Source: Candidatus Electrothrix sp. GW3-4 (lineage in GTDB: Bacteria; Desulfobacterota; Desulfobulbia; Desulfobulbales; Desulfobulbaceae). From it: 32,000 nt of DNA. This document shows, piece by piece, positions 1,232-20,258 of the stretch (position 1 is the stretch's first letter; the number at the start of each line of letters is the position of its first letter). The notes under the pieces are model-generated. The model was not told the DNA's origin, did no database searches, and saw nothing but the letters and a program-made list of their open reading frames with translations. The translations under genes were made by a program, and so were the position numbers. The stretch spans positions 3,780,001-3,812,000 of the forward strand of contig NZ_CP147990.1 in NCBI RefSeq assembly GCF_037902255.1. Reading direction: 5' to 3'.

Positions 1232-2170
1232 TCACCTTTCCAATAACTGATACCGCCCAAACCCCTTACTGGCCTGCTTACCGATATGCAGCCGCTGCCC
1301 GAGCAAAAGAAAAGGCCAGAACAACTCCGGCTCCGCAGGCGCAAAATCCACTGTCCCGAGAAAGCCCCTGAACTCGACCACCCTGCCCTGTCGCGCTGAC
1401 CAACAGGTGCTTGTGTGCGGGCGCAGGTCAATACTGATAAGCTCGGACTGGGCTGCCCGTTCCTTGAGGGCCCGGAAGTCGGCCTCCAGGGGACAGCCCA
1501 TATAAAAATACTGGAGCAGAGAGACGCGCCGGATCACGGCCATGAGCAGGCGGCTGATCTCAAGGGTGTCCGGGCGAAAGGCCTTATCCGAGGGCAGATA
1601 GGGGGTGAGGAATTGGAGGCGCACAGCAGCAGGCGCAGGCGGCATCGGCATTGGCTCCATAATACTCTCCCGAACCTCACCCTGCTGTTCCCAAATCAGC
1701 CGTTGACCACTGGGCAGTATCTGACTGACCTGAACCAGTTCAGCCTTTGCCCTGTCCGATCCAAAGCCCAGCTGCCCGGATTTTGCCATGGCCCGGACCA
1801 CCGCAGGCAGGCGTTTGCAGGCCGCCCCGGCCAGCACCAGGCCGTGGCTGAATTGCCCACCCGGCGAAATATTCGCCGCACCGCATTGCTCACTATGAAA
1901 GATATGGGGCAGGGGAACGGTGCCCACCTTGCGCATCATTTCTGCCTCGGGCGGTCTGGGGCCTTTGATAAAAAAGGCGAAATCGCATTGATGACGGAGC
2001 ATGCAGTCGCTACAGTCGGCATTCGGGGCGATGCAGCTCTGCTGATGCAGGGCCAACCCGAACACACTGCGCCGGAGTGGATCGGAAAATTCCGGCAGGG
2101 TCAGGCGGTCACGGGCCGTAAAGGTGAAGCGATATTCAGCAAGGAGGAGTTCCGGGGTGCAGTTGCGCAT
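1232..2170 (-). CDS. cas6: Cas6-family pre-crRNA endoribonuclease, paralogue 1 (large variant with a Cys-rich motif)
   Basis: From ORF 1232-2266. The C-terminal glycine-rich loop HIGKQASKGFGRY is typical of Cas6 RAMP proteins. It is about 85% aa identical to the ORF at 10274-11221. I set the start at ATG 2170 (MRNCTPELLLAEYRF) because it aligns with the RBS-preceded start of the paralogue. In-frame ATGs at 2233 and 2266 cannot be excluded. Confidence 0.8.
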   Translation of the reverse strand: MRNCTPELLLAEYRFTFTARDRLTLPEFSDPLRRSVFGLALHQQSCIAPNADCSDCMLRHQCDFAFFIKGPRPPEAEMMRKVGTVPLPHIFHSEQCGAANISPGGQFSHGLVLAGAACKRLPAVVRAMAKSGQLGFGSDRAKAELVQVSQILPSGQRLIWEQQGEVRESIMEPMPMPPAPAAVRLQFLTPYLPSDKAFRPDTLEISRLLMAVIRRVSLLQYFYMGCPLEADFRALKERAAQSELISIDLRPHTSTCWSARQGRVVEFRGFLGTVDFAPAEPELFWPFLLLGQRLHIGKQASKGFGRYQLLER

Positions 2171-2294
2171 AACGTTTTTTTCTTTGCGGCGGAAGGAAAA
2201 AGAGACAACCACCTGATTCGTCCACACATTCATGGCAGCATATCGAAGAACATAGCAAACCGCCACCCCCTTGTCAACGCAGCTTTTTTAGGGA

Positions 2295-2322
2295 TTGACA
2301 TCTTTCTTTATAGTGGTAATTT
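2295..2322 (+). promoter_or_regulatory. Candidate sigma70-type promoter for the cmr operon
   Basis: TTGACA (2295-2300), a 16-nt spacer, then TAATTT (2317-2322). It lies about 55 nt upstream of the cmr1 ATG, in the divergent cas6/cmr1 intergenic region. This is a pattern match only. Confidence 0.3.
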
Positions 2323-2377
2323 GAGAAAATTCATAAGGATATTGACAGGGCATCCTTCATCTTCAAGGAGCAGGATT

Positions 2378-3703
2378 ATGAGATTGCGTGTACCCGACAA
2401 GAACCCGGACGAAGCACAAGGCATACTGGACAGCCTGAAAGCCGGGGATAAAGAGCGGAAAAAGGAGAAATGGCTGAGCTACAAGATTGAGGTCATCACC
2501 CCGATCTTTGGTGGTGGGGTAGAGGCTGGAAAACCGGATACGAAGATGCCGGTGCGGGCTTCGGCTATCCGAGGCCAGCTGCGGTATTGGTGGAGGTTTT
2601 TGGCGACCAATCGTCGCATTGATCCTCTTTCTGGTGAAGACTTGTTCAAGGCTGAACGGGATATTTGGGGTGGGATGGCTGAGCCGGGGGAGGATTTTAG
2701 CAGCAAGGTGAGGATCAGGGTTGAAAACGTCACCTCTCATATTACCCCTCAACCGTACAATGAAGGAGGGGCACCTTATGCGTTGTTTCCAGCTCGTGAA
2801 CAAAAAAAAACGCATGATCCTGCCAAAAAATTAATCTGGCCCAAGGTGACCTTTGACCTGAAGGTACGTGTCTTGAAAGACAAGGTACCCAAAGAAGAAG
2901 ATCGAGAAAACATCAAACGCGCACTGCGCTGGTGGGCAACGTTCGGCGGCATAGGAGCGCGTACTCGTCGGGGATGCGGAAGTCTCTATTGCGCTGTTCT
3001 TTCTTTTTCCAGAGAAGAAGCTGAAGAAGAAGCAGACAAAACAGGATGTGAATTGGTTATCCCCCAAGGAACTGAATATGCTTTTGAAAAAGCCACCGAT
3101 GCTTGGAAACGCTCGATAATAATTCTACAGCAATTTCGTCAATTATTTAACGAGACAGGAAAATGGATCGGCGTAGGCAGAAGAATAAACGAGCAAAACA
3201 GGAAACAACCCGGAACCAGCCGCTGGCCTGAGGCAAATGCAATACGTGAAACAACAGGAAAGTCGTCAGATAAACATAGACCTCGTTCCACTCCTCCAAT
3301 ACTTTTCCCGCGTGCCATGTTCGGAATGCCACTCGGGTTTGCGTTTCTCAGCCGAAGTGACCGGGGAAAACCACCGGAAACGGAATTACTCCCGGTAAAA
3401 GGTGATCATGTTTTTGATCGTCTCGCTAGTCCTCTTATCCTCAAACCGATAGTATCTGGTGGCAGATTTAAACCAGCAGCTCTCCTGATGCCATGTTCCC
3501 ATATTAAGGAGTTAGGTTTGAAGTTACGTTACAAAAAACAACTTATCGAAAAACAAGAGAAAAAAACGGCATCTAAACGAACATTTGGGCGTGGGATATG
3601 GTGGGATGAAAGCAAAGCAACACTCGTTGATCCAATCAAGGACTACGGCGGCACTGACGCCCTCACCGCCTTCATGAACTTCTTTGCCAGGGGAGGAAGA
3701 TAA
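2378..3703 (+). CDS. cmr1: Cmr1 (type III-B RAMP subunit)
   Basis: This is the internal part of track ORF 1415-3703. ATG 2378 is preceded by AGGAG (2366-2370). ITPIFGGG and IRGQLRYWWR are RAMP motifs. The stop overlaps the cas10 start (TAATG). The upstream part of the long ORF is antisense to cas6. Confidence 0.9.
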   Translation: MRLRVPDKNPDEAQGILDSLKAGDKERKKEKWLSYKIEVITPIFGGGVEAGKPDTKMPVRASAIRGQLRYWWRFLATNRRIDPLSGEDLFKAERDIWGGMAEPGEDFSSKVRIRVENVTSHITPQPYNEGGAPYALFPAREQKKTHDPAKKLIWPKVTFDLKVRVLKDKVPKEEDRENIKRALRWWATFGGIGARTRRGCGSLYCAVLSFSREEAEEEADKTGCELVIPQGTEYAFEKATDAWKRSIIILQQFRQLFNETGKWIGVGRRINEQNRKQPGTSRWPEANAIRETTGKSSDKHRPRSTPPILFPRAMFGMPLGFAFLSRSDRGKPPETELLPVKGDHVFDRLASPLILKPIVSGGRFKPAALLMPCSHIKELGLKLRYKKQLIEKQEKKTASKRTFGRGIWWDESKATLVDPIKDYGGTDALTAFMNFFARGGR

Positions 3704-5613
3704 TGAACGATCAGGAAACCTGGCTCATCAGCCTCTCCATCGGCCCGGTTCAGGACTTCATCTCCGCTGCCCTCCGTACTCGTGACCTCTGGTTCGGCTC
3801 TTACATGCTTTCGGAAGTGAGCAAGGCCGCTGCCATCACCATAAAAAAATACAGCCCGGATGCCATTGATCTCATTTTTCCAGCCGCAGAAAACAGCGAC
3901 GAACTCAAACCAGATGAAGTCAATGTCGCTAACCGGATTGTGGCTGAAGTACAGGGAGGCGAAGAAGCGGTGAAGGGAGTCATCAACGCAGGGAAAGACG
4001 CTGCAAAGCAGAAACTCACCGACCTGATTGAGCAGGCCAAGAGCAAGGCGCCAATTTCTTTACGTGACGATATTTGGGAGATACAGGCCAAACCTGAAGA
4101 CCTCCTTGAACTCTACGGTACAGCCGTACAGATCAGCGACAAGGGCTACCCGGAGGCCTGGAAACGCCTAAGCCAACTGAACTCGGCACGAAAAAACAGC
4201 CGGAATTTCAGTCAATCTGCGGAGAAACCCAATGATAAGCCTTTTTACGGCCTGCCCAAATCTTCCCTGGACGGACGGCGGGAAACGGTTCTGGAAAAAA
4301 TAGACGACAAGGAAAAAGATAAACGCATTCGGCGCAGGCTGCGCATGGGTAAAGGAGAGCAGCTGGATGCGATGGGGCTGGTTAAGCGACTAGCTGGCAA
4401 AAACCCAGATCAGTTCACCCCCACCACCCGCATCGCTATTGATCCGTGGATACGGAAGATCAAGGAGGCTGAAAATGGACAGCTTGATCTGGAAAAAATC
4501 CAGGCTAAGCTAAAAACTCATGCAGATGCATTGTTACGTGCTGGCTTGATGACCCATGTGAAAGGCAATAAACGGAAAGACGAACTGGAGGGAATATATC
4601 AAGATGTACCCTTTGATGCGGGCTTGCTGTACCAAGGTGTACTTGATGAAGCCATCCGGAAAAGTAGGGAGGAAAAAAACTCCAACGAACTGGAAATTCT
4701 GAAAAAACTGCGCAATAAATTGGTTTCTATCTGGAAAAATCACGGTAAACCCTGCCCGTACTACGCCATGCTGCTTGCTGACGGCGACAACATGGGACGC
4801 CTGATTAAAGCTGCTCAAAGCGACACGCATCATAAAAAAATTTCGGAATGCCTGTCCGCCTTTGCTCAAGGCGTACCGGCTACCGCAAGAGATCATCAGG
4901 CCCACTGCATCTACGCTGGTGGCGATGATGTCCTGCTCATGGCACCACTGGATAAGGTGCTTGAACTTGCCGACGAGTTACGCAAAGCCTTTACGACAAC
5001 ATTACAAAGCATTGCCGCTGAGTTAAAAAAAGATGCCCCCACCTTCAGCGTCGGCATCGTCATCGCCCATATGCAGACACCCATTGGTCGGGTGCGCAGA
5101 CTGGTTAAGCGGGCAGAGGCTTTGGCAAAAGGTTCAGACACAGATAATCCCCGCAATGCCCTGGCAATCATCGTTGCCCCCCGTTCCGGGGCAGACATGA
5201 GTTTCCGGGCCAAATGGGAAAGAGACCCGGCCCAAAAACAAGATGGTGATGAACTGAACGAGCAGAAAAGTCCGGTAGAAGAGCTAAATGAACTTGCCAA
5301 ACTGTATCGGGATGACAAACTGCCCTCCGGCTTTGGTTATGAACTGCGCCAGATCAACCAGCTGGTGCATGATATGAAGGACCAAGAAAAAGCAGGAGAG
5401 ATTGCCGAGCTGGAAATGCGACGTATCCTTAACCGTAAAAACCAGGGCGGAGGCGGGGAAAAGGTAACTGATGGCACCATAAAAGACGTCATTGCCCATG
5501 CTGAACAAAAAATGAGCGTCAAGGACGACAAAAAGCTTTTTGACTTTGAGGCTGTTTGCAATGAACACCTGATCGCCCGCTGGCTGGGCGCACACGGGGA
5601 GGAACGAGGATGA
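3703..5613 (+). CDS. cas10: Cas10/Cmr2 large subunit, HD-less, with an intact GGDD cyclase palm
   Basis: 636 aa. It opens directly with SIGPVQDFI..RDLWFGSYMLS. It contains LLADGDNMG and CIYAGGDDVLLMAP. No HD-type N-terminal domain is present. Confidence 0.95.
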   Translation: MNDQETWLISLSIGPVQDFISAALRTRDLWFGSYMLSEVSKAAAITIKKYSPDAIDLIFPAAENSDELKPDEVNVANRIVAEVQGGEEAVKGVINAGKDAAKQKLTDLIEQAKSKAPISLRDDIWEIQAKPEDLLELYGTAVQISDKGYPEAWKRLSQLNSARKNSRNFSQSAEKPNDKPFYGLPKSSLDGRRETVLEKIDDKEKDKRIRRRLRMGKGEQLDAMGLVKRLAGKNPDQFTPTTRIAIDPWIRKIKEAENGQLDLEKIQAKLKTHADALLRAGLMTHVKGNKRKDELEGIYQDVPFDAGLLYQGVLDEAIRKSREEKNSNELEILKKLRNKLVSIWKNHGKPCPYYAMLLADGDNMGRLIKAAQSDTHHKKISECLSAFAQGVPATARDHQAHCIYAGGDDVLLMAPLDKVLELADELRKAFTTTLQSIAAELKKDAPTFSVGIVIAHMQTPIGRVRRLVKRAEALAKGSDTDNPRNALAIIVAPRSGADMSFRAKWERDPAQKQDGDELNEQKSPVEELNELAKLYRDDKLPSGFGYELRQINQLVHDMKDQEKAGEIAELEMRRILNRKNQGGGGEKVTDGTIKDVIAHAEQKMSVKDDKKLFDFEAVCNEHLIARWLGAHGEERG

Positions 5614-6914
5614 GTGATAAAACCAACAACAGCCCCGCCTATCTTTTTGAACCAAAATCCCCTTTGGTCTTTCGTACAGGCAGACCCTTTGATCAGGCCG
5701 GTGACCCGGTTTCTTTGGACTTTCCCCTGCCCTCGACCCTTGCCGGGGCCTGTCGGACTGCAATCGGTGACGTAAAGAATCAACTTGAGGAGGGCGGGTT
5801 CAATTTCACCCAAAGAGGGGCTGAGCTGAAGGGGATTCCCGTGCATGGGCCACTGGCCGCCCTGATCACCGAAGAGGGAGCGGAGCCGCTTTTCCCGAAA
5901 CCGGCAGATGCCGTGTATATGCGAAAAGAAAGCAAGAAGGAAGATCCAGAGAGGAACAAGATAGAAACTGAAATCTTGCAATTGATCCCTGAAGATGCCG
6001 GGGCAGATACCTGGTCCGACCTACCCAAAGGATTATTGCCTGTTTATCCAGAAAAGGAACTTGCGGGTAAGCCTTATAAAGACAAAAAAAATGCCCGTTG
6101 GTGGTGCCAAGATCGGCTCACTGATTGGTTACTGAATAACGAAAACCTCAAGAAAATTGCCCCTAAAAATTTAGGCTGGTCAGGCCCGCAAAAAGAACTG
6201 CGCACCCATGTGCAGCTGGAATCAAAAACCTTGGCTGCTGCGCCCAGCCAACTCTTTCAGACCAATAATCTCTCTTTCGCTCCCGGACGATTAAACAAGG
6301 ATGAGAACAGGCACGAGGGCTGGACCGAGGAACAGTACGGTCTGCTGGCCCATCTGCCGAATGATGACCTGAAAGGTACGTCACAGCTTTTCCGCCGTAT
6401 CGGGGGCGAGGGCCGAATTGCGCATATGAAGCAGCATGCTGAAGGTTGGCCGGGAATCCCGGAAGCACTTTCCTCTGAGCTGGGTAAGCTGGAACAGGAC
6501 AAAGAAATCCGAGGTATCCGCCTTGTCTTGGCAACCCCGGCTTTATTCACCTACGGCTGGCGACCGGGCTGGATCGAAGATGATATGACGGGCTGTCCGC
6601 CGGGCTTTTCTAAAGATTCGGAACCCCGTATCCGCCTTCGCCTCCGGGCCTTTGTCACCCCGCGCTGGGAGCCGGTTTCCGGTTGGGATTTGGTGAAAAA
6701 TTCTCAAGATAATACTGAAGATAAACAGGAGAAAAAGGGACCAGGTGCTGCCCGTGCTGTTCGCCGGATGGTGCCTGCCGGTGCTGTGTACTGGTTTGAG
6801 GTCAGAGCAGGTCACGAACATCTCCCTGAACTGTGGCTACAACCTATCAGTGACCTCGAACAAGATCAAAATGACGGCTACGGCTTAGTTCTGCCGGGTA
6901 TCTGGAAAAGATAA
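5610..6914 (+). CDS. cmr3: Cmr3
   Basis: 434 aa. The N-terminal SPLVFRTGRPF motif is present. The start overlaps the cas10 stop (ATGA). It occupies the canonical position between cas10 and cmr4. Confidence 0.9.
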   Translation: MSDKTNNSPAYLFEPKSPLVFRTGRPFDQAGDPVSLDFPLPSTLAGACRTAIGDVKNQLEEGGFNFTQRGAELKGIPVHGPLAALITEEGAEPLFPKPADAVYMRKESKKEDPERNKIETEILQLIPEDAGADTWSDLPKGLLPVYPEKELAGKPYKDKKNARWWCQDRLTDWLLNNENLKKIAPKNLGWSGPQKELRTHVQLESKTLAAAPSQLFQTNNLSFAPGRLNKDENRHEGWTEEQYGLLAHLPNDDLKGTSQLFRRIGGEGRIAHMKQHAEGWPGIPEALSSELGKLEQDKEIRGIRLVLATPALFTYGWRPGWIEDDMTGCPPGFSKDSEPRIRLRLRAFVTPRWEPVSGWDLVKNSQDNTEDKQEKKGPGAARAVRRMVPAGAVYWFEVRAGHEHLPELWLQPISDLEQDQNDGYGLVLPGIWKR

Positions 6915-6937
6915 TAAACCGCACAGGAGAAAATATT

Positions 6938-7930
6938 ATGGAAACGATGTGTTACTATATCCACGCATTAACCGCCCTCCATGCGGGAACAGGCCAGGGT
7001 GTCGGGGTGGTGGACCTGCCCATTGCCCGGGAAAAATCCACTGGCCTGCCCATTGTGCCGGGCAGTGGGATCAAGGGGGTGTTGCGGGAGGAGTTGAATC
7101 CTTCAAATCCCGGAACGGACGACCTCCAACCTTGTAAAGATGAACATGGACAAGATCAATCAGCTGAAGAATGCTGGTTAACTTTGTTCGGGCCGGATGC
7201 CAAGAATGTTGAAACAGGAAAAGAAGGCAGCGGTTTTGCCGGGGCCTTGAATATCCAGGATGCCCAGCTGCTCTGCCTGCCGGTGCGCTCGGTGTACGGG
7301 GTCTTTGCCTGGGTAACCTGCCCGTTTATCCTGCAACGATACAAGCGGGATCTGGAGCAAATTCACTGCTCCTCTCTGCCGGAATTTCCTGCTCTGCCGC
7401 AACAGGAGCGTGGTTCAGAGGAGGCTCCCTTAGTATTGACTGCCCCAGGAAGTGCGCTGGCCCCTTCCGGCAAGGTCTTTCTTGAAGATCTCGACTTTCA
7501 GGTGGCCGATGACAGCGCAGGACAAACGACAGTGGGACAGCTTGCAGAGCGCATTGCTGGCGCTGTCTTTTCAACTGATGCTGATTGGAAGAAATTCTTT
7601 AAAGAACGTTTTCTGATCATCCCGGATAACGTATTCAGCTTTCTGGCTGAAACTGCCACCGAGGTGCGGGCGAGGATCAAGCTGAAAGAAGGCACCCGAA
7701 CAGTGGAAGAGGGGGCCTTGTGGTATGAAGAAAATCTGCCTGCTGAAACCCTGCTCTGGGGCATTATCGGCTGTGACCGTTCCCGCCGGGATAAAGACGG
7801 GCCGAACGCCGACCAGCTTATGCAGCATTTCCGGGATGAGATCGGTATGGAAAAAAGTTTACAAATCGGTGGCAATGCCACGGTCGGGCGGGGCCGGGTG
7901 CGTTGGATTCCCGGACCGGTGGGGGGCTGA
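6938..7930 (+). CDS. cmr4: Cmr4 (backbone RAMP and target-RNA cleaving subunit)
   Basis: 330 aa. ALTALHAGTGQGVGVVDLPIAREKSTGLPIVPGSGIKGVLRE includes the conserved Asp of the DLPI site. The C-terminal glycine loop is GGNATVGRG. AGGAG lies upstream of the ATG. Confidence 0.95.
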   Translation: METMCYYIHALTALHAGTGQGVGVVDLPIAREKSTGLPIVPGSGIKGVLREELNPSNPGTDDLQPCKDEHGQDQSAEECWLTLFGPDAKNVETGKEGSGFAGALNIQDAQLLCLPVRSVYGVFAWVTCPFILQRYKRDLEQIHCSSLPEFPALPQQERGSEEAPLVLTAPGSALAPSGKVFLEDLDFQVADDSAGQTTVGQLAERIAGAVFSTDADWKKFFKERFLIIPDNVFSFLAETATEVRARIKLKEGTRTVEEGALWYEENLPAETLLWGIIGCDRSRRDKDGPNADQLMQHFRDEIGMEKSLQIGGNATVGRGRVRWIPGPVGG

Positions 7931-7933
7931 GCC

Positions 7934-8380
7934 ATGCAGACACGACAGCAAAAGGATTCCCTCCGAGCCTTGGAAGATGTACAGGCAATCAGAGACAGTA
8001 ATGAAGATGACCTGAAGAAAACCTATGCCAGGGCCGTCTACCGCTTTCCCTTTTTGGTTCGGCAGAACGGTCTACAACAAACACTTGGTTTTTATGAGGG
8101 TAAGGCCAAGGATTCGTCCTCGTCAGGAACCGAGGGAGACGTTTCACACGGTAACGCTGAAGAAGAATTTTTAAAACATATTGCTCAGGTGCTGGGTATT
8201 GAAAGAAGTGACTTAATTTCTACGATCTCAGGGGCTGATGTAGAAAAATACATGTATCTATCCCGCCGCTGCCTTGAGGTTGCACTTTGGTATCGACGAT
8301 TTACAGCGAGTGTTCTTGGCGTTGATATTACGGGAAATCCAACTGAAGAGCAGGTGACAGCCGAGGGAGGCAAAGAATAA
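7934..8380 (+). CDS. cmr5: Cmr5 (small subunit)
   Basis: 148 aa, located between cmr4 and cmr6. Contains FPFLVRQNGLQQTLGF. The stop overlaps the cmr6 start (TAATG). Confidence 0.85.
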   Translation: MQTRQQKDSLRALEDVQAIRDSNEDDLKKTYARAVYRFPFLVRQNGLQQTLGFYEGKAKDSSSSGTEGDVSHGNAEEEFLKHIAQVLGIERSDLISTISGADVEKYMYLSRRCLEVALWYRRFTASVLGVDITGNPTEEQVTAEGGKE

Positions 8381-9636
8381 TGTCATTTCAGATGATCCGA
8401 CCTAAGCTTCCTCACAAAAGAGAGACTGATCAAACAGATTGGCAAAACTCTAGCCTATTTCTTGACAAGGGATTTCAAAAATGGGAGACAAACGATGGTG
8501 ATAGGGGAGAAGCCATAGGCAAGCACATCAAGGTTGCTTGCGAAATAGATGTACCTGAAGTCTACAAGGCAGCCTACACTCGATGGCTTGGAGAAACCGC
8601 CAACAAAGAGAGCTTTGCCCGTTGGTTTGGCAAACTCGATGGTACCCGTCTGTTCATTGGTTTAGGCATGGACCATGCACTGGAGGCCCAGGTCTGCCGT
8701 CACCCTGTCTACGGGATGCCCTATATTCCCGGCTCTGCCCTGAAAGGACTGGCCCGTGCTGAGGCGAAAAGATATGCCAAGAAACAGGAAGAGGAAGAAT
8801 CAAAAAAATTCAACAAAGTGATTGATATTCTGTTCGGACCGGATTGCAATGACTCGGATGATCCCGAGGCCGAAGCTAATACCGGCTACCTGATTTTTCA
8901 CGATGCTTGGTGGATTCCCGGCGGAAAAGCAGGAGGATGTCAACAAAAGCCCTATATCCCGGAGATCGTCACGGTTCATGCGGTTGAATATTATACAAAT
9001 CAAGGGAAAAAAGAAGCACCGCATCCTGATATGGAATCCCCCAACCCTAACCACCAAATCGCTGTTCAAGGGAGCTTTTATTTTGTGGTCGAAGGTGTGC
9101 AGCAATGGGCGGAACTGGGCATGAAATTTCTTACCTTGGGACTACAAGAAGAAGGAATTGGCGGTAAGATTAGCGCTGGGTACGGGTATTTTGTATGGGA
9201 TGAAAAAACTAAAAAAAATGGTGAGAATATCGCCAGAGAATGGGTCCAAAAAACCAAAGAAGCACAACAGCAAGTACGGATTAACAATCTAAGTGAATCT
9301 GAATACTTGGTTTATACGCTAAACAAACTGGTGGAGGAATATCAAAAAAACTCAAAGGTATTAGGGGAACGAGGAAGGAGTAAAATCCTACAGCAGGCTG
9401 CCGAGATTGAAAAGTACGAAAAATGGCCCGCACTATACAATAAAGAGAATGCCTTGGTGGCTGTTGCTCATGCCAAATCTGTAGCCACAATTACGAAAAA
9501 AAGAGCAGCAAAAAACGAAACCACAAACCACCATCGCAGAAAAAAATCGAAGCTAGAGCCAGAAAACGTCAGAAACAAAAGAATAAGAAGTAACTCTGAC
9601 TATCCCGAAGGGATTCTATTCACCAGCAAAGGGTAA
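8380..9636 (+). CDS. cmr6: Cmr6 RAMP subunit with a C-terminal K/E/Q-rich extension of about 146 aa
   Basis: 418 aa. The RAMP motifs YIPGSALKGLAR and GGKISAGYGYF are present. The recognisable core ends near aa 272 (about nt 9195). The rest is AT-rich, charged sequence ending in a basic tail (KKRAAKNETTNHHRRKKSK..NKRIR). Confidence 0.9.
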   Translation: MSFQMIRPKLPHKRETDQTDWQNSSLFLDKGFQKWETNDGDRGEAIGKHIKVACEIDVPEVYKAAYTRWLGETANKESFARWFGKLDGTRLFIGLGMDHALEAQVCRHPVYGMPYIPGSALKGLARAEAKRYAKKQEEEESKKFNKVIDILFGPDCNDSDDPEAEANTGYLIFHDAWWIPGGKAGGCQQKPYIPEIVTVHAVEYYTNQGKKEAPHPDMESPNPNHQIAVQGSFYFVVEGVQQWAELGMKFLTLGLQEEGIGGKISAGYGYFVWDEKTKKNGENIAREWVQKTKEAQQQVRINNLSESEYLVYTLNKLVEEYQKNSKVLGERGRSKILQQAAEIEKYEKWPALYNKENALVAVAHAKSVATITKKRAAKNETTNHHRRKKSKLEPENVRNKRIRSNSDYPEGILFTSKG

Positions 9637-9707
9637 CACCCTGGGTTAAGGACTTTACCCCGACTCGCTACCACGAATTTCATCGCAAACCATACAAGGT
9701 GTCAAGC

Positions 9708-10214
9708 ATGAATGATCTCAAAACCTGGTTGGAAAATATGGTCTTAACCTACAAGGTAATAACAATTATAATTTCCGGTGGGATACTATCTTTTTTTATT
9801 TATTTTTGGAGATATATAAAAGTTCAGTGGCGGTTTGGAAGAAATCTAAAAAGAGAAGTATACTTTCTGAAAACATCAGGCAAACATGACCTGCAAGCTG
9901 AACGAAAGAAACTGATTGATTTGAATGTATTTAATATAGCTGGAGAAGTTAAAGACATCTCAACGTCCACAAAAATATTGCAACCGATAAATAAAAATGC
10001 TGTTTATATCGTTGGCTACGATACTGACTATACTAGATATAAAGAACTTTTTGAGTCGGCAAAACCATCCGTCCCTATTATCATATTTGCCGATCAAAGA
10101 GAGATACAAAAATCAGAGCATTGGACAATATTCAATGAATATATTTATTGCGATGTAGCCAATACAACACATCGTCTTGCAATTATTTTGCTAAGTACAT
10201 TGAAAATTGTGTGA
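9708..10214 (+). CDS. Small single-pass membrane protein of unknown function, last gene of the cmr block
   Basis: The track ORF starts at GTG 9699. ATG 9708 (MNDLKTWLEN) has AAGG 8 nt upstream. One hydrophobic helix is present (VITIIISGGILSFFIYFW). It is followed by about 130 aa with an alternating beta/alpha-like pattern (VYFLKTSG, AVYIVGYD, PIIIFAD, YIYCDV). The gene is strongly AT-rich compared with its neighbours. Confidence 0.6.
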   Translation: MNDLKTWLENMVLTYKVITIIISGGILSFFIYFWRYIKVQWRFGRNLKREVYFLKTSGKHDLQAERKKLIDLNVFNIAGEVKDISTSTKILQPINKNAVYIVGYDTDYTRYKELFESAKPSVPIIIFADQREIQKSEHWTIFNEYIYCDVANTTHRLAIILLSTLKIV

Positions 10215-10273
10215 ATAGCTTGATCAACAATTCGACCTCCCAAAAAACTAATCAAACAATATCACAACACTTT

Positions 10274-11221
10274 TCAACCATCTCCCCAACTCAAAACCTG
10301 ATACCGCCCAAACCCCTTACTAGCCTGCTTACCAATATGCAACCACTGGCCGAGCCAGAGAAAAGGCCAGAACAGCTCCGGGTCCCTGGGCGCAAAATCC
10401 ACTGTTCCCAGAAATCCCCTCAACTCCACCTCCCTCCCCTGTCGCGCTGACCACCAGGTGGTGGTATGCGAGCGCAGGGCAATATTCATGACTTCGGACT
10501 GGGCCGCGCAGTCCTTGAGGGCCCGAAAATCGGCCTCCAGGGGACAGCCCATGTAAAAATACTGAAGCAGAGAAACACGCCGGATCACAGCCATGAGCAA
10601 CCGGCTGATCTCAAGGGTCTCTGGGCGGAAGGACTTGTCCGAGGGCAGATAGGGGGTGAGGAAGTGCAGCCGCAGAGCTGCGGGCGCAGGCGGCACCAGA
10701 GCTTGCTCCATAATACTGTCCTGAACCTCGCCCTGCTGATCCCAGATCAGCCGCTGGCCACCCGGCAACACCTGAGCAACTTGGAGCAATTCCGCCTTTG
10801 CCCTGTCCGAGCCAAACCCCAAGCGCCCGGATTTCTCCATAGCCCGAATCACCGCAGGCAGGCGTTTGCAGGCAGCCCCGGCTAGCACCAGGCCGTGGCT
10901 GAATTGTCCACCCGGCGAGATGCTCGCCGCACCGCATTGGTCGCTGTGAAAGATATGGGGCAACGGCACCGTGCCCACCTTGCGCATGATCTCCGCTTCT
11001 GGCGGCCTGGGGCCTTTGATGAAAAAGGCAAAATCGCATTGATGGCAAAGCATGCAGTCGGCACAGTCAGCATTGGGGGCAATACAGCTCTGCTGGTGCA
11101 GGGCCAGCCCGAACACACTGCGGCGGAGCGGGTCGGAAAAGAGCGGCAGGGTCAGGGGATCACGGGCCGTAAAGGTGAAACGGTATTCGGCAAGAATGAG
11201 ATGGGGTGTGCAAGGTTGCAT
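10274..11221 (-). CDS. cas6: Cas6-family pre-crRNA endoribonuclease, paralogue 2
   Basis: From ORF 10274-11272. It has the same HIGKQASKGFGRY loop and Cys-rich motif as paralogue 1. ATG 11221 (MQPCTPHLILAEYRF) is preceded by AGAAGG about 9 nt upstream. The ATG at 11272 is an alternative start. Confidence 0.8.
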   Translation of the reverse strand: MQPCTPHLILAEYRFTFTARDPLTLPLFSDPLRRSVFGLALHQQSCIAPNADCADCMLCHQCDFAFFIKGPRPPEAEIMRKVGTVPLPHIFHSDQCGAASISPGGQFSHGLVLAGAACKRLPAVIRAMEKSGRLGFGSDRAKAELLQVAQVLPGGQRLIWDQQGEVQDSIMEQALVPPAPAALRLHFLTPYLPSDKSFRPETLEISRLLMAVIRRVSLLQYFYMGCPLEADFRALKDCAAQSEVMNIALRSHTTTWWSARQGREVELRGFLGTVDFAPRDPELFWPFLWLGQWLHIGKQASKGFGRYQVLSWGDG

Positions 11222-11286
11222 ATCATGCCTTCTGTCTGAAAAAATGTTTCGCGTGGAGGGCTGTAGGGGCACGACGTGCCGTGCCC

Positions 11287-11592
11287 TTACTTCACCTCAA
11301 TAACCCGAAAGCCCTGATTACCAAAGCAGTAGATGACAAACAGGGCAATCCGTGCCCCTGGGTATTCCTGGCGCAGACCGTCGGCATAGCCAGCGATCTG
11401 TTCTGTATCTTGGGGCCGAAGCTGAAAATCCGCAATACTGGTTTTCATTTTTTTAAATTCGCTGTTGGAAAAATACTTAAATTCAATCACCCAGCGCAGG
11501 CCTGCGTAGATTTCGTTATACTTGGGCTTGTCAGTGGTCCATTCATTTTGAAAGGCTTTTTTCGCAAGGATACCCTGATGCTTACTTGCTGT
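11287..11592 (-). pseudogene. Probable 5'-truncated remnant of a PD-(D/E)XK-type nuclease gene
   Basis: The frame is open for 101 codons from an in-frame stop at 11593-11595. Its only start candidate is GTG 11490. It reads ..WTTDKPKYNEIYAGLRWVIEFKYF..DTEQIAGYADGLRQEYPGARIALFVIYCFGNQGFRVIEVK. The D-x13-E-x-K spacing and layout resemble the C-termini of the genes at 15366 and 20567. The family link is by eye only. Confidence 0.35.
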
Positions 11593-11845: not shown

Positions 11846-12120
11846 GGAATTTTTTCAGGTTATTTTTTCTCGTTGTCATTATTCGTCATGATTAAAAAAA
11901 TGCATTTATAATTTTGATTTTTCAGGTAAAAATATTTTGAAAAACACTGTAAATTCAACTTTTAATACTGATTATGACAAAGTAGTCACGATGTCGTGCA
12001 ACGAATTGTATTATCGCTTGTAATGCCGATTCAAAATTCACAACTTTCAAAACCCGTTTCCATGTCGTTTTTTTACTTGCTTAATCTGCTGAATCTACTA
12101 TCGTTTGAAGCAAGGCCGCT
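11846..12120 (+). promoter_or_regulatory. AT-rich leader of CRISPR array 1
   Basis: About 275 bp of very AT-rich non-coding sequence immediately 5' of the first repeat. Orientation is inferred from the repeat 3' end ATTAAGAC, which resembles the canonical 8-nt crRNA handle. Confidence 0.5.
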
Positions 12121-14396
12121 GTCGTAGCACCTACCCTATGAAGAGGGTATTAAGACTTGGGCAGTTCCTCCCGTCCAAGAAAACTGGATGTCGTAGCACC
12201 TACCCTATGAAGAGGGTATTAAGACACAAGCATGGAGCAGGCTACAAGCCTGCTCCGTGTCGTAGCACCTACCCTATGAAGAGGGTATTAAGACGGGTAG
12301 GGATTTTACCAGCCAGAATAGTCCAAAGAGTCGTAGCACCTACCCTATGAAGAGGGTATTAAGACTTGATCGCTTGCCCGTAGCACCAGACATTCCGGTC
12401 GTAGCACCTACCCTATGAAGAGGGTATTAAGACCCATTTTGCCTAACTCTTTAAGTATCTGCTCGATGTCGTAGCACCTACCCTATGAAGAGGGTATTAA
12501 GACCTCTGAAAGTAACCTCCTCCACCTCATAGTACGCTGTCGTAGCACCTACCCTATGAAGAGGGTATTAAGACAGCGATGATGTTGCGGGGTGTAAAAA
12601 TCTTTTTCACGTCGTAGCACCTACCCTATGAAGAGGGTATTAAGACGCCATTCGTGAGCCTCTTCTTCAGAGAAGAAAGTCGTAGCACCTACCCTATGAA
12701 GAGGGTATTAAGACTGAGACGAGGAAGGACTTCCTCCCTCGTTTCCGTCGTAGCACCTACCCTATGAAGAGGGTATTAAGACCCCAGCGAAGAAAATCAA
12801 TCTTCTGGTTCTGGCTGTCGTAGCACCTACCCTATGAAGAGGGTATTAAGACACTCCTTCCGCCTGTGCCCCAGCGATGCTGGGGAGGTCGTAGCACCTA
12901 CCCTATGAAGAGGGTATTAAGACCGATTAAAAGGTCTCCGTTATCGCAGCTAGCGACTGTCGTAGCACCTACCCTATGAAGAGGGTATTAAGACAGTAGT
13001 TTTTTACACAAATGTGTCGCAGGGAAGAGGTCGTAGCACCTACCCTATGAAGAGGGTATTAAGACCTTAAATAATCCACCTCATTAGCGGTCATAACAGT
13101 GTCGTAGCACCTACCCTATGAAGAGGGTATTAAGACAACTTTGTAGTTCTTTGGGTATTATCATGATGTCGTAGCACCTACCCTATGAAGAGGGTATTAA
13201 GACTAAAAGGTGGTTGCGAGTTAGACACTGCTATCTCTGTCGTAGCACCTACCCTATGAAGAGGGTATTAAGACGACGAAATTGTTCAACGTGATAGCAA
13301 CTACGGCGGGTCGTAGCACCTACCCTATGAAGAGGGTATTAAGACAATTTTTTTCAGTTGTCTTCATTAGAGCATCCCGTCGTAGCACCTACCCTATGAA
13401 GAGGGTATTAAGACTCTTTAGTGTGGACACTATAATTTTCTTCTGGTCGTAGCACCTACCCTATGAAGAGGGTATTAAGACTTCACGCCTACTCCTTTCT
13501 TCGTGTTTTGCCCTCGTCGTAGCACCTACCCTATGAAGAGGGTATTAAGACTTTTGTTGCCCATGCCCTTTTTCTCGTATCGCTCCGTCGTAGCACCTAC
13601 CCTATGAAGAGGGTATTAAGACGTTACAATTAAGTTCAACTTTGCGACCTGAAGGGTCGTAGCACCTACCCTATGAAGAGGGTATTAAGACTTTCGAGTA
13701 AAAACTACTGCATACCTACCGAGATACGTCGTAGCACCTACCCTATGAAGAGGGTATTAAGACTTTTGCCCAGAAGAATCTCTAGAACTCCAGCTTCGTC
13801 GTAGCACCTACCCTATGAAGAGGGTATTAAGACAACATTAATATCATCACTACTCCCGTTAGTGACGTCGTAGCACCTACCCTATGAAGAGGGTATTAAG
13901 ACCGAAGGATTTTTGATCTTGCGACAAATCTGCACGAGGTCGTAGCACCTACCCTATGAAGAGGGTATTAAGACCGTTGGAGAGGTTGTCAATTGCTTCT
14001 TTCTCGGAACGTCGTAGCACCTACCCTATGAAGAGGGTATTAAGACTTCCTCTAGGCTCTCCATTTTTAAAGAAAATGGGGTCGTAGCACCTACCCTATG
14101 AAGAGGGTATTAAGACATGACGCTCGAGCGACCAGTTAAACGCAGGTACTGTCGTAGCACCTACCCTATGAAGAGGGTATTAAGACGCGTTGCCACTGCT
14201 GGCAACGTAACTTTCCGCTGTCGTAGCACCTACCCTATGAAGAGGGTATTAAGACCTCCTCAGCCTGCGCATTTGCTTGTGCGTCTGCCTGTCGTAGCAC
14301 CTACCCTATGAAGAGGGTATTAAGACATAGCCCGGCTTAGGCGGATTACCTTGAGCTAAGGTCGTAGCACCTACCCTATGAAGAGGGTATTAAGAC
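12121..14396 (+). CRISPR. CRISPR array 1: 33 repeats and 32 spacers
   Basis: The 36-nt repeat is GTCGTAGCACCTACCCTATGAAGAGGGTATTAAGAC. I saw no variant copy by eye. Spacers are about 31-36 nt by hand count. The repeat has an internal hairpin, TACCCT-ATGAAG-AGGGTA. Confidence 0.98.
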
Positions 14397-14531
14397 CAAA
14401 TTAACAGCGGGCTTTCGCCTACTCTCATCCCATCCTTTTTCACCTTTCTCTCTTATTCTGATTCCAAACTTTGAGCATATCGAATATAATAGCTTATTCG
14501 TCCTTGTTGCTTTGTCTCTAAGAGGGGAAAA

Positions 14532-15365: not shown

Positions 15366-16925
15366 ATGGAGAAATTAGGCTTAGGGATACAGGAACTGGC
15401 TGTATTCAAAGAGAAGGGGCTGATCTATGTGGATAAAACCGAGCTTATTGAAAAACTGATAAACAGTGGCAAATACTATTTCCTCTCCCGGCCCAGACGC
15501 TTTGGTAAATCCCTGCTGGTCAACACAATCCAGGAGCTTTTTTCCGGCAACAAAGACCTGTTCACAGGCTGTCACGTACATGATTCCTGGAACTGGGAGG
15601 AGAAACACCCGGTCATAAAGATCAGCTTTTCAGAGATGAACTACCGGCAGGACGGTCTGGAAAAGGCCCTGGAGGACTCCCTGCTGCAATTAGCTGAGGA
15701 GCATGGTGTCCAATTTACTACATCAGGTTACGGCAACAGGTTTCTGGAGCTGATCAAGGCGGTGGGCAGGGAAACACCGGCGGTTGTCCTGATTGATGAA
15801 TACGATAAACCAATTATTGATTATCTGGAAAAATCCGCCAACGAACAGGCCGAAGCAAATCGGGAAATACTGAAAACCTTCTATACCGGCATCAAGGATC
15901 AGGACAGGTTTCTCCGCTTCCTCCTGATCACCGGGGTATCCAAGTTCAGCAAGGTTTCCATCTTCAGCGACCTGAACCACCTGACCGACATCACCGTGTC
16001 CAGGCATTTTGCTGCGATAGCCGGGTACAGCGAAGCGGAAATCAGGCGGCATTACCCACAGTACCTGACCGCGCTCAGCCGGGATTACAACCTCTCCGAA
16101 GACGAGATGATGAAGGAGATTGCCCTCTGGTATAACGGCTACTCCTGGGACGGCAAGACCTTCCTCTTTAACCCCTATTCGATCATCAGTCTGTTTTTTC
16201 ACCAGATATTTAAGAATTTCTGGTTCGAAACCGGCACCCCAACCTTTCTTGTTCAACGGATCAAGGAGTCTGGCCGGAAGATCAACGAGTCCATAAGCAA
16301 GGAGATCAACGAATCCGTCTTTAGCAGGTATGATGTCGATAATATGAACACCACAGCCATCATGTTTCAGACAGGCTACCTGACCATCAAGGAGTTTGAC
16401 TGGAGACGGAACAAGTACCGCCTTGATTTCCCGAACAAAGAGGTCCGTGAATCCTTTCTCCATTTTGCTGCGGAGCATTATGTGGGCAGCTCCCAGGATG
16501 AGATGGGCGGCATTACGGAAATGCTGGCCGAGGCCCTTGCCTTGAACGATATGCAGAGCTTTTTTATTGCCCTGCAAGCCCTGTTCAGTTCAATAGCGGT
16601 CAAGCAGCTGGACAAAGTGAAGGAATACGAAGGATTTTATCATTCCGTGATCTATATTGTCCTGAAGCTCCTCGGTATGCAGATCGCCTGTGAAGTGCAG
16701 TCAAATTTCGGCACCACAGATGCGGTCCTGCAAACAGCGGAACATATCTATGTGCTTGAGTTCAAAATGGGCACTGCCGCCTCGGCACTGGAACAGATCA
16801 AAAAGAGAAAATATCACACGCCGTATCTTGCCGATCAACGGGGTTTGGTGCTTGTCGGTTTCGGTTTTGACAAGGCGGAACGAAATCTGACGGATTTTCT
16901 TGCTGAGGAGATAGAGAATCGGTGA
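15366..16925 (+). CDS. AAA-ATPase-like plus PD-(D/E)XK (PDDEXK_9/DUF1703-type) protein, paralogue A
   Basis: 519 aa. The N-terminus YVDKTELIEKLI..YYFLSRPRRFGKSLL and VVLIDEYDKP fit the AAA-ATPase_like domain. The C-terminus TTDAVLQTAEHIYVLEFKMG..ALEQIKKRKY has the PD-(D/E)XK D...ExK core. Confidence 0.85.
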   Translation: MEKLGLGIQELAVFKEKGLIYVDKTELIEKLINSGKYYFLSRPRRFGKSLLVNTIQELFSGNKDLFTGCHVHDSWNWEEKHPVIKISFSEMNYRQDGLEKALEDSLLQLAEEHGVQFTTSGYGNRFLELIKAVGRETPAVVLIDEYDKPIIDYLEKSANEQAEANREILKTFYTGIKDQDRFLRFLLITGVSKFSKVSIFSDLNHLTDITVSRHFAAIAGYSEAEIRRHYPQYLTALSRDYNLSEDEMMKEIALWYNGYSWDGKTFLFNPYSIISLFFHQIFKNFWFETGTPTFLVQRIKESGRKINESISKEINESVFSRYDVDNMNTTAIMFQTGYLTIKEFDWRRNKYRLDFPNKEVRESFLHFAAEHYVGSSQDEMGGITEMLAEALALNDMQSFFIALQALFSSIAVKQLDKVKEYEGFYHSVIYIVLKLLGMQIACEVQSNFGTTDAVLQTAEHIYVLEFKMGTAASALEQIKKRKYHTPYLADQRGLVLVGFGFDKAERNLTDFLAEEIENR

Positions 16926-17226: not shown

Positions 17227-20200
17227 GTTGCAGCACCCCACCCTATGAAGAGGGTATTGAGACCCAGCCTGGAACATCAACGGTTGCCTTGTATACTGTT
17301 GCAGCACCCCACCCTATGAAGAGGGTATTGAGACTCAATTACTTTTGTTTTTTTCTTGCGATATATTCTTGTTGCAGCACCCCACCCTATGAAGAGGGTA
17401 TTGAGACATATCCACCGTTGCCAGATTTTTATGAGTCGCGTGGTTGCAGCACCCCACCCTATGAAGAGGGTATTGAGACATGGTTTTAACAACTCTGGGC
17501 CTAAAATCGTTTGGTTGCAGCACCCCACCCTATGAAGAGGGTATTGAGACAAGTGCGTATTCTCTAGCCTTCCAAGCTACTTCCGTTGCAGCACCCCACC
17601 CTATGAAGAGGGTATTGAGACACTTAACATTTTTTTTTCTCCGTTTGTTTTTATGAGTTGCAGCACCCCACCCTATGAAGAGGGTATTGAGACGAGGTCA
17701 AACTCTTCAGCGACTTCGCTGTCGCTGAGTTGCAGCACCCCACCCTATGAAGAGGGTATTGAGACATCGGAAGCTTAATTTCAGACTCGCCAGAAGGATG
17801 TTGCAGCACCCCACCCTATGAAGAGGGTATTGAGACGCCCATCAACAATCCTTATGCGCCGGGCCGGACTTGTTGCAGCACCCCACCCTATGAAGAGGGT
17901 ATTGAGACTTGGCTTTGCCGGTCAAGAGCAATGGCAAAAAGACGTTGCAGCACCCCACCCTATGAAGAGGGTATTGAGACCGAGTCGATTACGAAGAAAT
18001 GAGCTTTGCGTACCGTTGCAGCACCCCACCCTATGAAGAGGGTATTGAGACCGAGCTGGAGCACTGAGCCTTTAAGGTCCCCCTCGTTGCAGCACCCCAC
18101 CCTATGAAGAGGGTATTGAGACCTGCTCCCTTCAGCATCAAAAACAACAAATCCCTGTTGCAGCACCCCACCCTATGAAGAGGGTATTGAGACAACCCAG
18201 CAGGGTAGTTATGCCCTCGCTCCGGGCACGTTGCAGCACCCCACCCTATGAAGAGGGTATTGAGACAAGTTCTTCATAGTATTCTGACAGGGCAATGAGC
18301 GCGTTGCAGCACCCCACCCTATGAAGAGGGTATTGAGACAGGAGTGTATGCATGTCTTTCGGCAACAGCGGTTGTTGCAGCACCCCACCCTATGAAGAGG
18401 GTATTGAGACATTGTCACTCAAATCTACCGAGGCGGTGAGGTCGTTGCAGCACCCCACCCTATGAAGAGGGTATTGAGACTGTCCAGGAGAGTTTTTTTG
18501 CGTAGCGCAACCAGAGTTGCAGCACCCCACCCTATGAAGAGGGTATTGAGACACGCTATTCTCCTTGCCCCGTTGCCGGGGCGGTTGGTTGCAGCACCCC
18601 ACCCTATGAAGAGGGTATTGAGACCACGTCTTGTCAGTGCCTTTTTTGCGCTGGATTTTGTTGCAGCACCCCACCCTATGAAGAGGGTATTGAGACCCCT
18701 AAAGGATCTTGCCAGATCATGATATCCTCGGTTGCAGCACCCCACCCTATGAAGAGGGTATTGAGACTGCTCCCGTGTTGGTCGTTGCGATACCGGATAA
18801 AGGTTGCAGCACCCCACCCTATGAAGAGGGTATTGAGACGTCGCAGAGTAAGGTCGCTGTCCACATTTAAAAGTTGCAGCACCCCACCCTATGAAGAGGG
18901 TATTGAGACAGCTTCAGCCAGCACCTCTTCATGCCACCCTTCAGTTGCAGCACCCCACCCTATGAAGAGGGTATTGAGACCAGGCGAAAGCCTCGGTATT
19001 GTTGCGGCTGCTACCGTTGCAGCACCCCACCCTATGAAGAGGGTATTGAGACATGCACCTCAAGGGCGTAGAGGGGTCAGGAAAGTCAAGTTGCAGCACC
19101 CCACCCTATGAAGAGGGTATTGAGACTTGTATTCCTGCGGCTCTACCACTATCTTATATGGCGTTGCAGCACCCCACCCTATGAAGAGGGTATTGAGACC
19201 GTTTACGTTTGCGGCGCTTTGCGCGCCTATCCAGGTTGCAGCACCCCACCCTATGAAGAGGGTATTGAGACAGGTCACAGAGCAGAGTCTTTGGCTTAAT
19301 ACGGGGTTGCAGCACCCCACCCTATGAAGAGGGTATTGAGACCATTTGTCGCGTGGTATCGCCCGCAAAATATATGAGTTGCAGCACCCCACCCTATGAA
19401 GAGGGTATTGAGACTACATTGTGAGCAGGTTATATCAGGCACGATTCCGTTGCAGCACCCCACCCTATGAAGAGGGTATTGAGACCTCCTCGCCCCGCTC
19501 CGGGGCGGTTGTTTTTAGGTTGCAGCACCCCACCCTATGAAGAGGGTATTGAGACGTATGGTTGACCATGCAATTCTCTTTTGTATCAAGTTGCAGCACC
19601 CCACCCTATGAAGAGGGTATTGAGACACCGCACTGATCCAGGGTTTTAAACTCAACCCGGGTTGCAGCACCCCACCCTATGAAGAGGGTATTGAGACAGC
19701 CAGATCCCTGGATCTAGAAAGGATATATTCCGTTGCAGCACCCCACCCTATGAAGAGGGTATTGAGACCGCTCTCCAGCTCCACACGTCCTTTGCTGCTG
19801 CGTTGCAGCACCCCACCCTATGAAGAGGGTATTGAGACGTTCCGTATGGTAAAAATCCACGGTAAAACTTTGTTGCAGCACCCCACCCTATGAAGAGGGT
19901 ATTGAGACTGCCAATAGCCTCCCGGTCCCTTTTCCGCCTCCGTTGCAGCACCCCACCCTATGAAGAGGGTATTGAGACACTGCGGGGGTAATGCGTGGGG
20001 GTGGGGTACTTGTTGCAGCACCCCACCCTATGAAGAGGGTATTGAGACAAAGAGATAGAGGCCCAACTCAATGCCCGCCGCGTTGCAGCACCCCACCCTA
20101 TGAAGAGGGTATTGAGACGCCAATCCATTCACGCATCATGGGAAACCGCTCGGTTGCAGCACCCCACCCTATGAAGAGGGTATTGAGACCTTGCCCGCCG

Positions 20201-20258
20201 TGTTTGTTGATTACTGTTTTGGTTGCAGCACCCCACCCTATGAAGAGGGTATTGAGAC
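17227..20258 (+). CRISPR. CRISPR array 2: 43 repeats and 42 spacers
   Basis: The 37-nt repeat is GTTGCAGCACCCCACCCTATGAAGAGGGTATTGAGAC. I saw no variant copy by eye. Spacers are about 32-37 nt. It shares the CCCTATGAAGAGGGTATT core with array 1 but differs in the 5' third and at one handle position. Confidence 0.98.

Follow-up and report, generated by a model that had tools for sequence, protein, structure and literature searches.

The membrane-protein gene and its type III-B locus

The genomic stretch of Candidatus Electrothrix sp. GW3-4 analyzed herein (32,000 nucleotides (nt); hereafter, the window) contains a complete type III-B (Cmr) module of a CRISPR system, and the last gene of its operon, located at 9708..10214 on the plus strand, encodes a small membrane protein of 168 amino acids (aa), which is the subject of this study. 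An earlier interpretation of the DNA made without database searches (the sequence-only reading) had proposed this protein as a candidate ancillary membrane effector of the type III system. The cmr1-cas10-cmr3-cmr4-cmr5-cmr6 operon (2408..9636, plus strand) consists of cmr1 (about 2408-3703), the signal synthase gene cas10/cmr2 (3703..5613), cmr3 (5610-6914), cmr4 (6938-7930), cmr5 (7934-8380), and cmr6 (8380-9636), and is accompanied on the minus strand by a downstream cas6 (10274..11272) and a cas6 paralogue (1232..2266) that is 84% identical to the downstream copy (BLASTP). All six cmr genes and cas6 were matched by Pfam and NCBIfam models, including CRISPR_Cas6 of Pfam for cas6, and Cmr2_N and Cas10-Cmr2_palm2 of Pfam as well as TIGR02577 of NCBIfam for Cas10.

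A motif scan of Cas10 located the GGDD motif at residues 406-409 (nt 4918-4929), and since the protein opens directly with the Cmr2_N domain, it lacks an HD domain; both properties had been correctly read from the sequence. A Pfam scan over the 32 kb detected no CARF, SAVED, or other known effector among the larger open reading frames (ORFs), and neither cas1/cas2 nor a gene for a CD-NTase (a nucleotidyltransferase resembling cGAS and DncV) was present among the ORFs scanned in the window. Because no other known effector was found among the larger ORFs scanned, the membrane-protein gene is probably the only output of the HD-less Cas10 at this locus, and immunity would thus depend on it.

The ORF opens at a GTG codon and spans 9699..10214 on the plus strand, with an internal ATG at 9708. 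The latter is the likely start codon, because it is preceded at a spacing of 6 nt by a Shine-Dalgarno-like AAGGTG (9696..9701, plus strand, assigned by reading the sequence) and because the homologues share its opening residues, MND/MNN. Counterparts of this putative ribosome-binding site, AAGGAG/GAGGAA, were found in two related loci (L032 and L001). A run of 168 stop-free codons would arise by chance at the local base composition with a probability of approximately 6e-7, 25 homologues were retrieved with E-values from 1e-36 to 1e-92, and the family profile matched 102 clusters (representatives at 50% identity) of mostly similar length. The possibility of a spurious ORF was rejected on the grounds of this conservation, and the proposal of an ORF for approximately 168 aa lying directly after cmr6 on the same strand, between the two cas6 copies, was thus confirmed.

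The gene is as AT-rich as had been noticed, with a GC content of 0.323 (0.29 at third codon positions) against 0.497 for the whole window and 0.45-0.60 for the neighboring genes. It follows the cmr6 stop codon (9636) after 71 nt on the same strand. The spacer, though conserved, folded no better than shuffled sequence (z = -0.29). As a separate observation, the DNA encoding the end motif of Cmr6 (YPEGILF..KG) and the 71-nt spacer are kept in L032, despite an overall identity of approximately 69%.

Architecture and fold of the protein

The hydropathy profile of the protein (Kyte-Doolittle) reached a peak of 1.86 at residues 11-35, defining a single transmembrane (TM) helix at about residues 12-35 (9741..9812, plus strand), and one N-terminal hydrophobic segment of this kind is the rule across the family. 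The helix is followed by a basic juxtamembrane stalk, RYIKVQWRFGRNLKR (9813..9854, plus strand), which includes the family-wide conserved R42, N46, L47, and R49. On the basis of this basic stalk and the positive-inside rule, an N-out/C-in topology was predicted, which would place the C-terminal domain in the cytoplasm. The remainder of the protein (9855..10211, plus strand) forms a (beta-alpha)5 receiver-like/flavodoxin-like domain, the presumed ligand sensor, as judged from AlphaFold2 modeling, Foldseek comparison, and residue conservation. In the AlphaFold2 model of the full-length protein, built with 26 homologues (pLDDT, predicted local distance difference test, 84.8), a continuous helix spanning residues 2-47 leads straight into the (beta-alpha)5 domain, and the model of the domain alone (residues 45-168) gave a pLDDT of 91.1 and a pTM (predicted template modeling score) of 0.88. 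The hydropathy peak and the modeled domain were in good agreement with the sequence-only reading, which had described one hydrophobic helix followed by alternating beta/alpha segments.

In the Foldseek comparison with the PDB, the top TM-scores (0.62-0.68) were given by the CheY-like receivers DesR, HupR, NarL, and AmiR, together with the CpaE/TadZ pseudo-receivers, and B12-binding domains and flavodoxins scored slightly below the receivers. The CARF, SAVED, and TIR folds, against which the domain was to be compared according to the sequence-only reading, fared differently: a receiver/flavodoxin-like fold emerged from the domain model, and no CARF, SAVED, or TIR structure was among the Foldseek matches listed (no CARF in the top 50). 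No Pfam family, including Response_reg (PF00072) and the CARF families, matched any of the 26 members beyond sub-threshold noise, NCBIfam did not cover the window protein or its 25 closest relatives, and a profile run over all PDB chains with a cutoff of E<=10 retrieved only one unrelated periplasmic binding protein.

Across 110 members, R42, N46, L47, R49, E65, F75, G103, Y104, P123, I125, Y145, N152, R156, and L157 are conserved. In the model, N46 and R49 are placed in the stalk between the TM helix and beta1, Y104 lies at the C-terminal end of a strand, Y145 just before beta5, and N152 and R156 just behind beta5, in the loop and the beginning of the helix; P123 is likewise located at this C-terminal edge of the sheet. 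Flavodoxin-like folds bind their ligands at the C-termini of the strands. The clustering of conserved polar residues at the C-terminal edge of the modeled sheet thus points to a putative ligand site.

The alignment of 26 close homologues further revealed that beta3 ends in G-Y-x with a variable position 105, that Ala predominates at position 128, where beta4 ends, and that Asn is invariant at position 152 after beta5. Missing are the acidic pair that follows beta1, the phospho-acceptor Asp expected where beta3 ends, and the Lys behind beta5. With the phospho-acceptor quintet of receivers, Thr/Lys switch residues included, lacking, the domain is no phosphorylatable receiver. One family member of 332 aa (P0038) has 160 additional residues at its N-terminus, ahead of the usual TM helix and receiver-like domain; they include a lipoprotein-like signal (...VVMSGCN...) and a highly repetitive, acidic tract of the form PQE(D/E)VEVPQEEMQV.

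Family membership and distribution of the relatives

The sequence-only reading recognized no family for this protein, a statement that could not be upheld. The PADLOC model PDLC01057 ('C3a59, trans-membrane (TM)') matched the window protein with an E-value of 8.9e-13 over residues 3-158 (profile positions 4-153 of 167). C3a59 corresponds to cluster 59 of the type III accessory clusters of Shah et al. 2018, which was built from 7 genes with Nos7107_2826 as the representative and for which neither fold nor function was proposed (PMC6546367). The link to this Nostoc representative consists of the match to the hidden Markov model alone. Relatives approximately 50% identical to the window protein matched both C3a59 and PDLC00664 (1e-5 to 1e-10), the 'Effector 1TM' model of CBASS (antiphage signaling based on cyclic oligonucleotides). 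Furthermore, Hoikkala et al. 2024 described Cam2 from 26 type III loci as a protein with an N-terminal TM domain and a C-terminal REC-like domain, discovered in loci where Cas10 is cyclase-positive but HD-less and where no effector was known, and predicted its activation by cyclic tri-adenylate (cA3) (PMC11229360). The window protein fits this description in all respects, combining an N-terminal TM helix, a REC-like C-terminal domain, and a type III locus with a cyclase-competent Cas10. The family has thus already been catalogued three times, as C3a59, as CBASS 1TM, and apparently as Cam2. Known before but uncharacterized, it is newly recognized here as linking type III and CBASS members, which are grouped by sequence into one family. 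A second word-indexed homologue search with a broad alignment added only eight further proteins.

The genomic surroundings were compared in 35 informative distinct loci. In 34 of them, the gene directly adjoins a signal synthase gene, namely a type III module in 7 and a CD-NTase gene in about 27, the remaining one being an orphan; the adjacency to these two unrelated kinds of synthase is therefore near-obligate. The co-occurrence of homologues with type III systems, which the sequence-only reading had considered, was accordingly borne out in 7 of the 35 loci, but most relatives lie beside CD-NTases rather than Cas10.

In all seven type III loci (the window, L001, L032, L034, L035, L006, and L004), the gene is located right after the last RAMP (repeat-associated mysterious protein) gene, and the same position in six loci other than the window supports the candidacy as a type III ancillary effector. 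The gene follows cmr6 in an Electrothrix/Desulfobulbaceae metagenome-assembled genome (MAG; L001-L003), in L032/L033 (55% identical), in L034, and in L035; in L033, the next element is a CRISPR array whose repeat is related to that of the window. In Desulfobacter curvatus DSM 3379 (L006) and a Desulfobacteraceae MAG (L004), by contrast of architecture, it stands behind the final gene of a module of type III with a short Cas10 and fused RAMPs, and cas6 comes after the family gene in L006. The L006 module (2479-11554) encodes a 550-aa Cas10 and three large fused RAMPs of 679, 461, and 806 aa, and the counterparts of the latter two are fused in L004 into one protein of 1269 aa. The family effector stands in these two modules in place of the CorA of III-D2 systems.

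In the approximately 27 CD-NTase loci, the gene lies immediately 5' of the CD-NTase gene and shares its strand. The partner CD-NTases carry the Pfam domain SMODS with or without AGS_C and matched the 'oligonucleotide cyclase' models of PADLOC. These CBASS loci take the form of bare two-gene modules, often in restriction-modification islands, or of modules with a Cap2-like E2. Since the family protein is the only partner of the CD-NTase and occupies the effector position, it would serve as the effector in the two-gene modules, which further supports the effector role proposed for the window protein. Type I restriction-modification operons house two such modules: that of L016 (6954-15044) separates hsdS from hsdR, and that of L022 (398-6060) the methylase gene from the specificity gene. 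The hosts include Desulfobacterota, several phyla of the candidate phyla radiation (CPR), and one Woesearchaeota bin; no relatives were detected in the viral contigs scanned with the close-family alignment. The orphan L039 encodes a 172-aa member with no synthase gene nearby, flanked by imperfect direct repeats of approximately 146 nt (154-294 and 1745-1886) that lie 1591 bp apart, giving it the look of a gene cassette, possibly integron-like.

The CBASS-linked relatives, which constitute the majority, include some that are closer to the window protein than the members in L004 and L006, and in a neighbor-joining tree of the soluble domain (no bootstrap) both type III groups fell within the CBASS-linked diversity, so that their nesting therein is tentatively proposed. 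This small family of approximately 170 aa is used interchangeably by CBASS and type III CRISPR. As the family is also found in the absence of cas genes, the assignment of the window protein as a subunit of the Cmr complex was rejected.

Acquisition of the gene

A blastn comparison revealed a transfer or recombination tract at 9791..10210 (plus strand) with 96% DNA identity to positions 10084-10503 of L001. In this tract, 128 of 132 residues of the soluble domain are identical, while the Cmr proteins of the two loci are 48-76% identical (71-78% in DNA) and the first 36 residues, including the TM helix, are unrelated in sequence. Taken together, the 96% tract, the unrelated residues 1-36, and the more divergent cmr genes indicate that the sensor-domain segment moved recently between the loci and that the TM helix can be exchanged as a module. 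The separate acquisition that had been proposed from the base composition is thus supported by this tract. The low GC content, on the other hand, is a trait of the family rather than the scar of a single insertion, because the family gene was AT-richer than its locus in 11 of 11 other loci tested; it may stem from a foreign source, from a bias in the amino acids used, or from selection that keeps the expression of a toxic product weak.

The candidate signal molecule

The partner cyclases of the family provided the clue to the ligand. In L028/L029, the effector slot of a SMODS-HORMA-AAA (CdnC-HORMA-Trip13) operon is taken by a divergent family member (P0130, 26% identical), whose partner cyclase is a close full-length homologue of CdnC from E. 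coli MS115-1 (E 7.8e-78). The E. coli CdnC and the P. aeruginosa CdnD produce cyclic tri-AMP (cAAA), which activates NucC (bioRxiv 10.1101/694695). P0130 stands in for the cA3-activated nuclease NucC in a CdnC-type operon. The partner cyclases of the E2-linked and AGS-C-linked members have CdnD or CdnC as their best, although distant, solved relatives, and Cam2 has been seen beside the cA3 effectors NucC and SAVED-CHAT (Hoikkala et al., PMC11229360). On account of the CdnC-type operon, the CdnD/CdnC-like partners, and the published adjacency of Cam2, cA3 is the leading candidate and probably the ligand of this effector family. The L028 (1-10431)/L029 operon itself is located among genes for MazG-like, DNA polymerase B exonuclease-like, and ATP-cone proteins, which suggests that it is carried on the genome of a phage or another mobile element.

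Proposed mechanism

All these observations make it likely that the gene encodes a signal-activated membrane effector of type III-B CRISPR, which responds to a cyclic oligonucleotide, probably cA3. In the proposed mechanism, the Cmr complex would bind target RNA, upon which the Cas10 cyclase, having GGDD but no HD, would synthesize cyclic oligoadenylate (cOA), most probably cA3. This ligand would occupy the C-terminal edge of the beta-sheet in the cytoplasmic receiver-like domain, where Y104, N152, and R156 are conserved, and would drive or rearrange oligomers, and the TM helices, rigidly coupled through the basic helical stalk with its N46-L-x-R49 motif, would then perturb or permeabilize the inner membrane, so that the infected cell would stop growing or die. 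While the existence of the gene, its architecture, its fold class, its family, and the adjacency to signal synthases are demonstrated in this study, ligand binding, the identity of the ligand, oligomerization, and membrane damage are what we infer from the architecture and the genomic context.

A more far-reaching proposal, to which we would give somewhat less than an even chance, is that the CheY-like fold, having lost its phospho-acceptor site, was recruited as a cyclic-oligonucleotide sensor of a new class, different from CARF, SAVED, STING, and the Cap15 barrel. It would be mounted on one interchangeable TM helix, and this module would be exchanged among CBASS operons (of type I, of type II-short, and of type III with HORMA/Trip13) and type III CRISPR systems of at least two architectures, most likely as a reader of cA3. 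Membrane effectors are the commonest and least understood output of cyclic-nucleotide immunity. The union of the type III and CBASS members and the replacement of NucC would provide independent and testable support for the cA3 ligand and for a receiver-like nucleotide sensor. If the more far-reaching proposal proves true, no smaller membrane effector gated by a cyclic trinucleotide would be known, and the Electrothrix-like locus would offer a natural test system.

Comparison with known systems

Cam2 and the window protein have in common the type III locus, the HD-less Cas10 with its cyclase motif, the lack of any other known effector, and the predicted role as a cA3 membrane effector. The family described here is, however, mostly CBASS-linked, which is not mentioned in PMC11229360, and Cam2 loci may have NucC or SAVED-CHAT as a neighbor, whereas the window has none. 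With respect to C3a59, the nearly full-length match indicates that the window protein is a divergent desulfobacterotal member.

The CBASS '1TM' effectors are a catch-all class rather than a characterized family. This class reportedly originates from Millman et al. 2020. The 50%-identical relatives of the window protein match its model, with the same length and architecture, and are the sole candidate effectors beside a CD-NTase, whereas the window protein itself falls outside the model and serves Cas10 instead of a CD-NTase.

Inner-membrane compromise is established for Cam1, Csx23, and Cap15, each of which employs another sensor fold. Cam1, which depolarizes the membrane when activated by cA4, follows the same logic in type III loci, combining a TM region at the N-terminus with a cytoplasmic domain that senses nucleotides, and the analogy in architecture without evidence of homology, as drawn in the sequence-only reading, held. 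The sensor of Cam1 is a CARF domain with cA4 as the ligand, whereas that of the window protein is not CARF, as it showed no Pfam CARF match, no PDB sequence match, and receivers as the best Foldseek matches; homology to CARF or Cam1 was hence rejected on both fold and sequence. Csx23 is likewise a small membrane protein, in which a TM helix at the N-terminus is joined to a C-terminal domain that binds cOA and lies outside the CARF/SAVED superfamily; this cA4-binding domain is tetrameric, and its fold is described as unique, in contrast to the receiver-like fold of the window protein. The window protein showed no sequence similarity to any PDB chain, and Csx23 was not among the fold matches listed. 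NucC, SAVED-CHAT, and TIR-SAVED similarly represent single effector families plugged into both Cas10 and CD-NTase signaling; these are, however, soluble and enzymatic (NucC a nuclease, SAVED-CHAT a protease, TIR-SAVED an NADase), while the present family comprises non-enzymatic membrane proteins.

Alternative explanations

Several points weigh against the interpretation as a cA3-activated effector. In the Foldseek comparison, the best E-value was about 1e-2 and none was <=1e-3, so that the matches define a fold class and not homology. The CBASS model PDLC00664 did not match the window protein even at E<=10, and its tie to the CBASS 1TM class is transitive only, via the 50%-identical relatives. 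The identity with Cam2 is likely but unproven, the two having been compared by the published description alone, and the searchable literature contained no experimental data on any family member, including Cam2 or a CBASS effector of TM-receiver type. Scans for promoters and terminators yielded no signal above shuffled controls. As for the ligand, the assignment draws on one CdnC-type operon together with distant CdnD-like cyclases, and it is limited by the AGS-C-fused cyclases that accompany most relatives, the products of which are uncharacterized. Finally, the fused-RAMP loci L004 and L006 resemble the III-D variants in which SAM-AMP (S-adenosylmethionine-AMP), not cOA, is the messenger (PMC13294483).

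The last points bear directly on the strongest alternative, namely an effector of the same kind that responds to another signal, such as cA4/cA6, a cyclic dinucleotide, or SAM-AMP. It gains from the predominance of cA4 as a type III messenger (PMC11229360) and from the AGS-C domain of most partner CD-NTases, which have no characterized close relative. CD-NTases are, however, not known as producers of SAM-AMP, the sole partner cyclase with a close characterized relative is of the cAAA-producing CdnC type, and the published neighbors of Cam2 are cA3 effectors; we thus regard this alternative as unlikely, though deserving of serious attention.

Less probable still, and in our view improbable, is an accessory membrane protein that is not gated by any signal, acting as an anchor or regulator of the Cmr complex or the CD-NTase, or as an immunity or regulator component. 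The protein has no evident enzymatic or pore-forming domain, a receiver-like fold could serve protein-protein contacts, and Cam3 was judged to be possibly an accessory protein and not an effector (PMC11229360). The two-gene CBASS modules, however, contain no other candidate effector, and the unrelated nature of the synthases (Cas10 on the one hand, and SMODS proteins with AGS-C, E2, or HORMA/Trip13 on the other) argues for a diffusible product rather than a protein partner.

Even smaller is the chance that the gene is a hitch-hiking mobile cassette unrelated to CRISPR that landed between cmr6 and cas6 and encodes, for instance, a small toxin or an exclusion protein. Its very low GC content (0.32 versus 0.50), the recent recombination tract, and the repeat-flanked orphan L039 would be in line with such a cassette, but the constant post-RAMP position in seven type III loci of two architectures, the tight coupling to CD-NTases elsewhere, and the AT-richness as a family trait in 11 of 11 other loci all speak against it. 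A conventional phospho-accepting receiver on the membrane under the control of a histidine kinase was rejected and has scarcely any probability left, for although CheY-like receivers are the best structural matches and a hybrid histidine kinase (29398-31992) and a histidine phosphotransfer (Hpt) protein are encoded 19 kb away, 0 of the 26 members matched Pfam Response_reg, the acidic pair, the phospho-acceptor Asp, and the Lys are all missing, and no other locus shows a linkage of the kinase to the gene.

Other features of the locus

Two CRISPR arrays were identified downstream of the module by Tandem Repeats Finder: array 1 (12117..14397, strand not assigned) with the 36-nt repeat GTCGTAGCACCTACCCTATGAAGAGGGTATTAAGAC, and array 2 (17298..20258) with the related yet distinct repeat GTTGCAGCACCCCACCCTATGAAGAGGGTATTGAGAC, the two repeats being 36 and 37 nt long. 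Each array is trailed by a paralogous gene of approximately 520 aa with AAA-ATPase_like and PDDEXK_9 domains (15366-16925 and 20567-22132), so that the unit of array and ATPase gene is present in duplicate. The two cas6 paralogues, lying in the same orientation, flank the cmr operon and the effector gene as long direct repeats, through which the whole module could be excised or exchanged.

Just upstream of the CRISPR module, the minus strand carries a gene for a HepT-like ribonuclease toxin (Pfam E 3.5e-28) and an overlapping 95-aa ORF (245-586 and 579-866), the latter of which we take to be probably an MNT antitoxin; a HicB-like antitoxin gene is found on the equivalent side in L001. The long ORFs antisense to both cas6 genes (1415-3703 and 10466-10885, plus strand) are artifacts of GC-rich antisense frames, and only the 3' part of the former, a 762-aa ORF opening at GTG, corresponds to cmr1, the true start of which lies near 2408. 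Lastly, Cmr6 carries a Lys/Arg-rich C-terminal extension of approximately 145 aa beyond its RAMP domain (residues about 272-418; 9200-9636).

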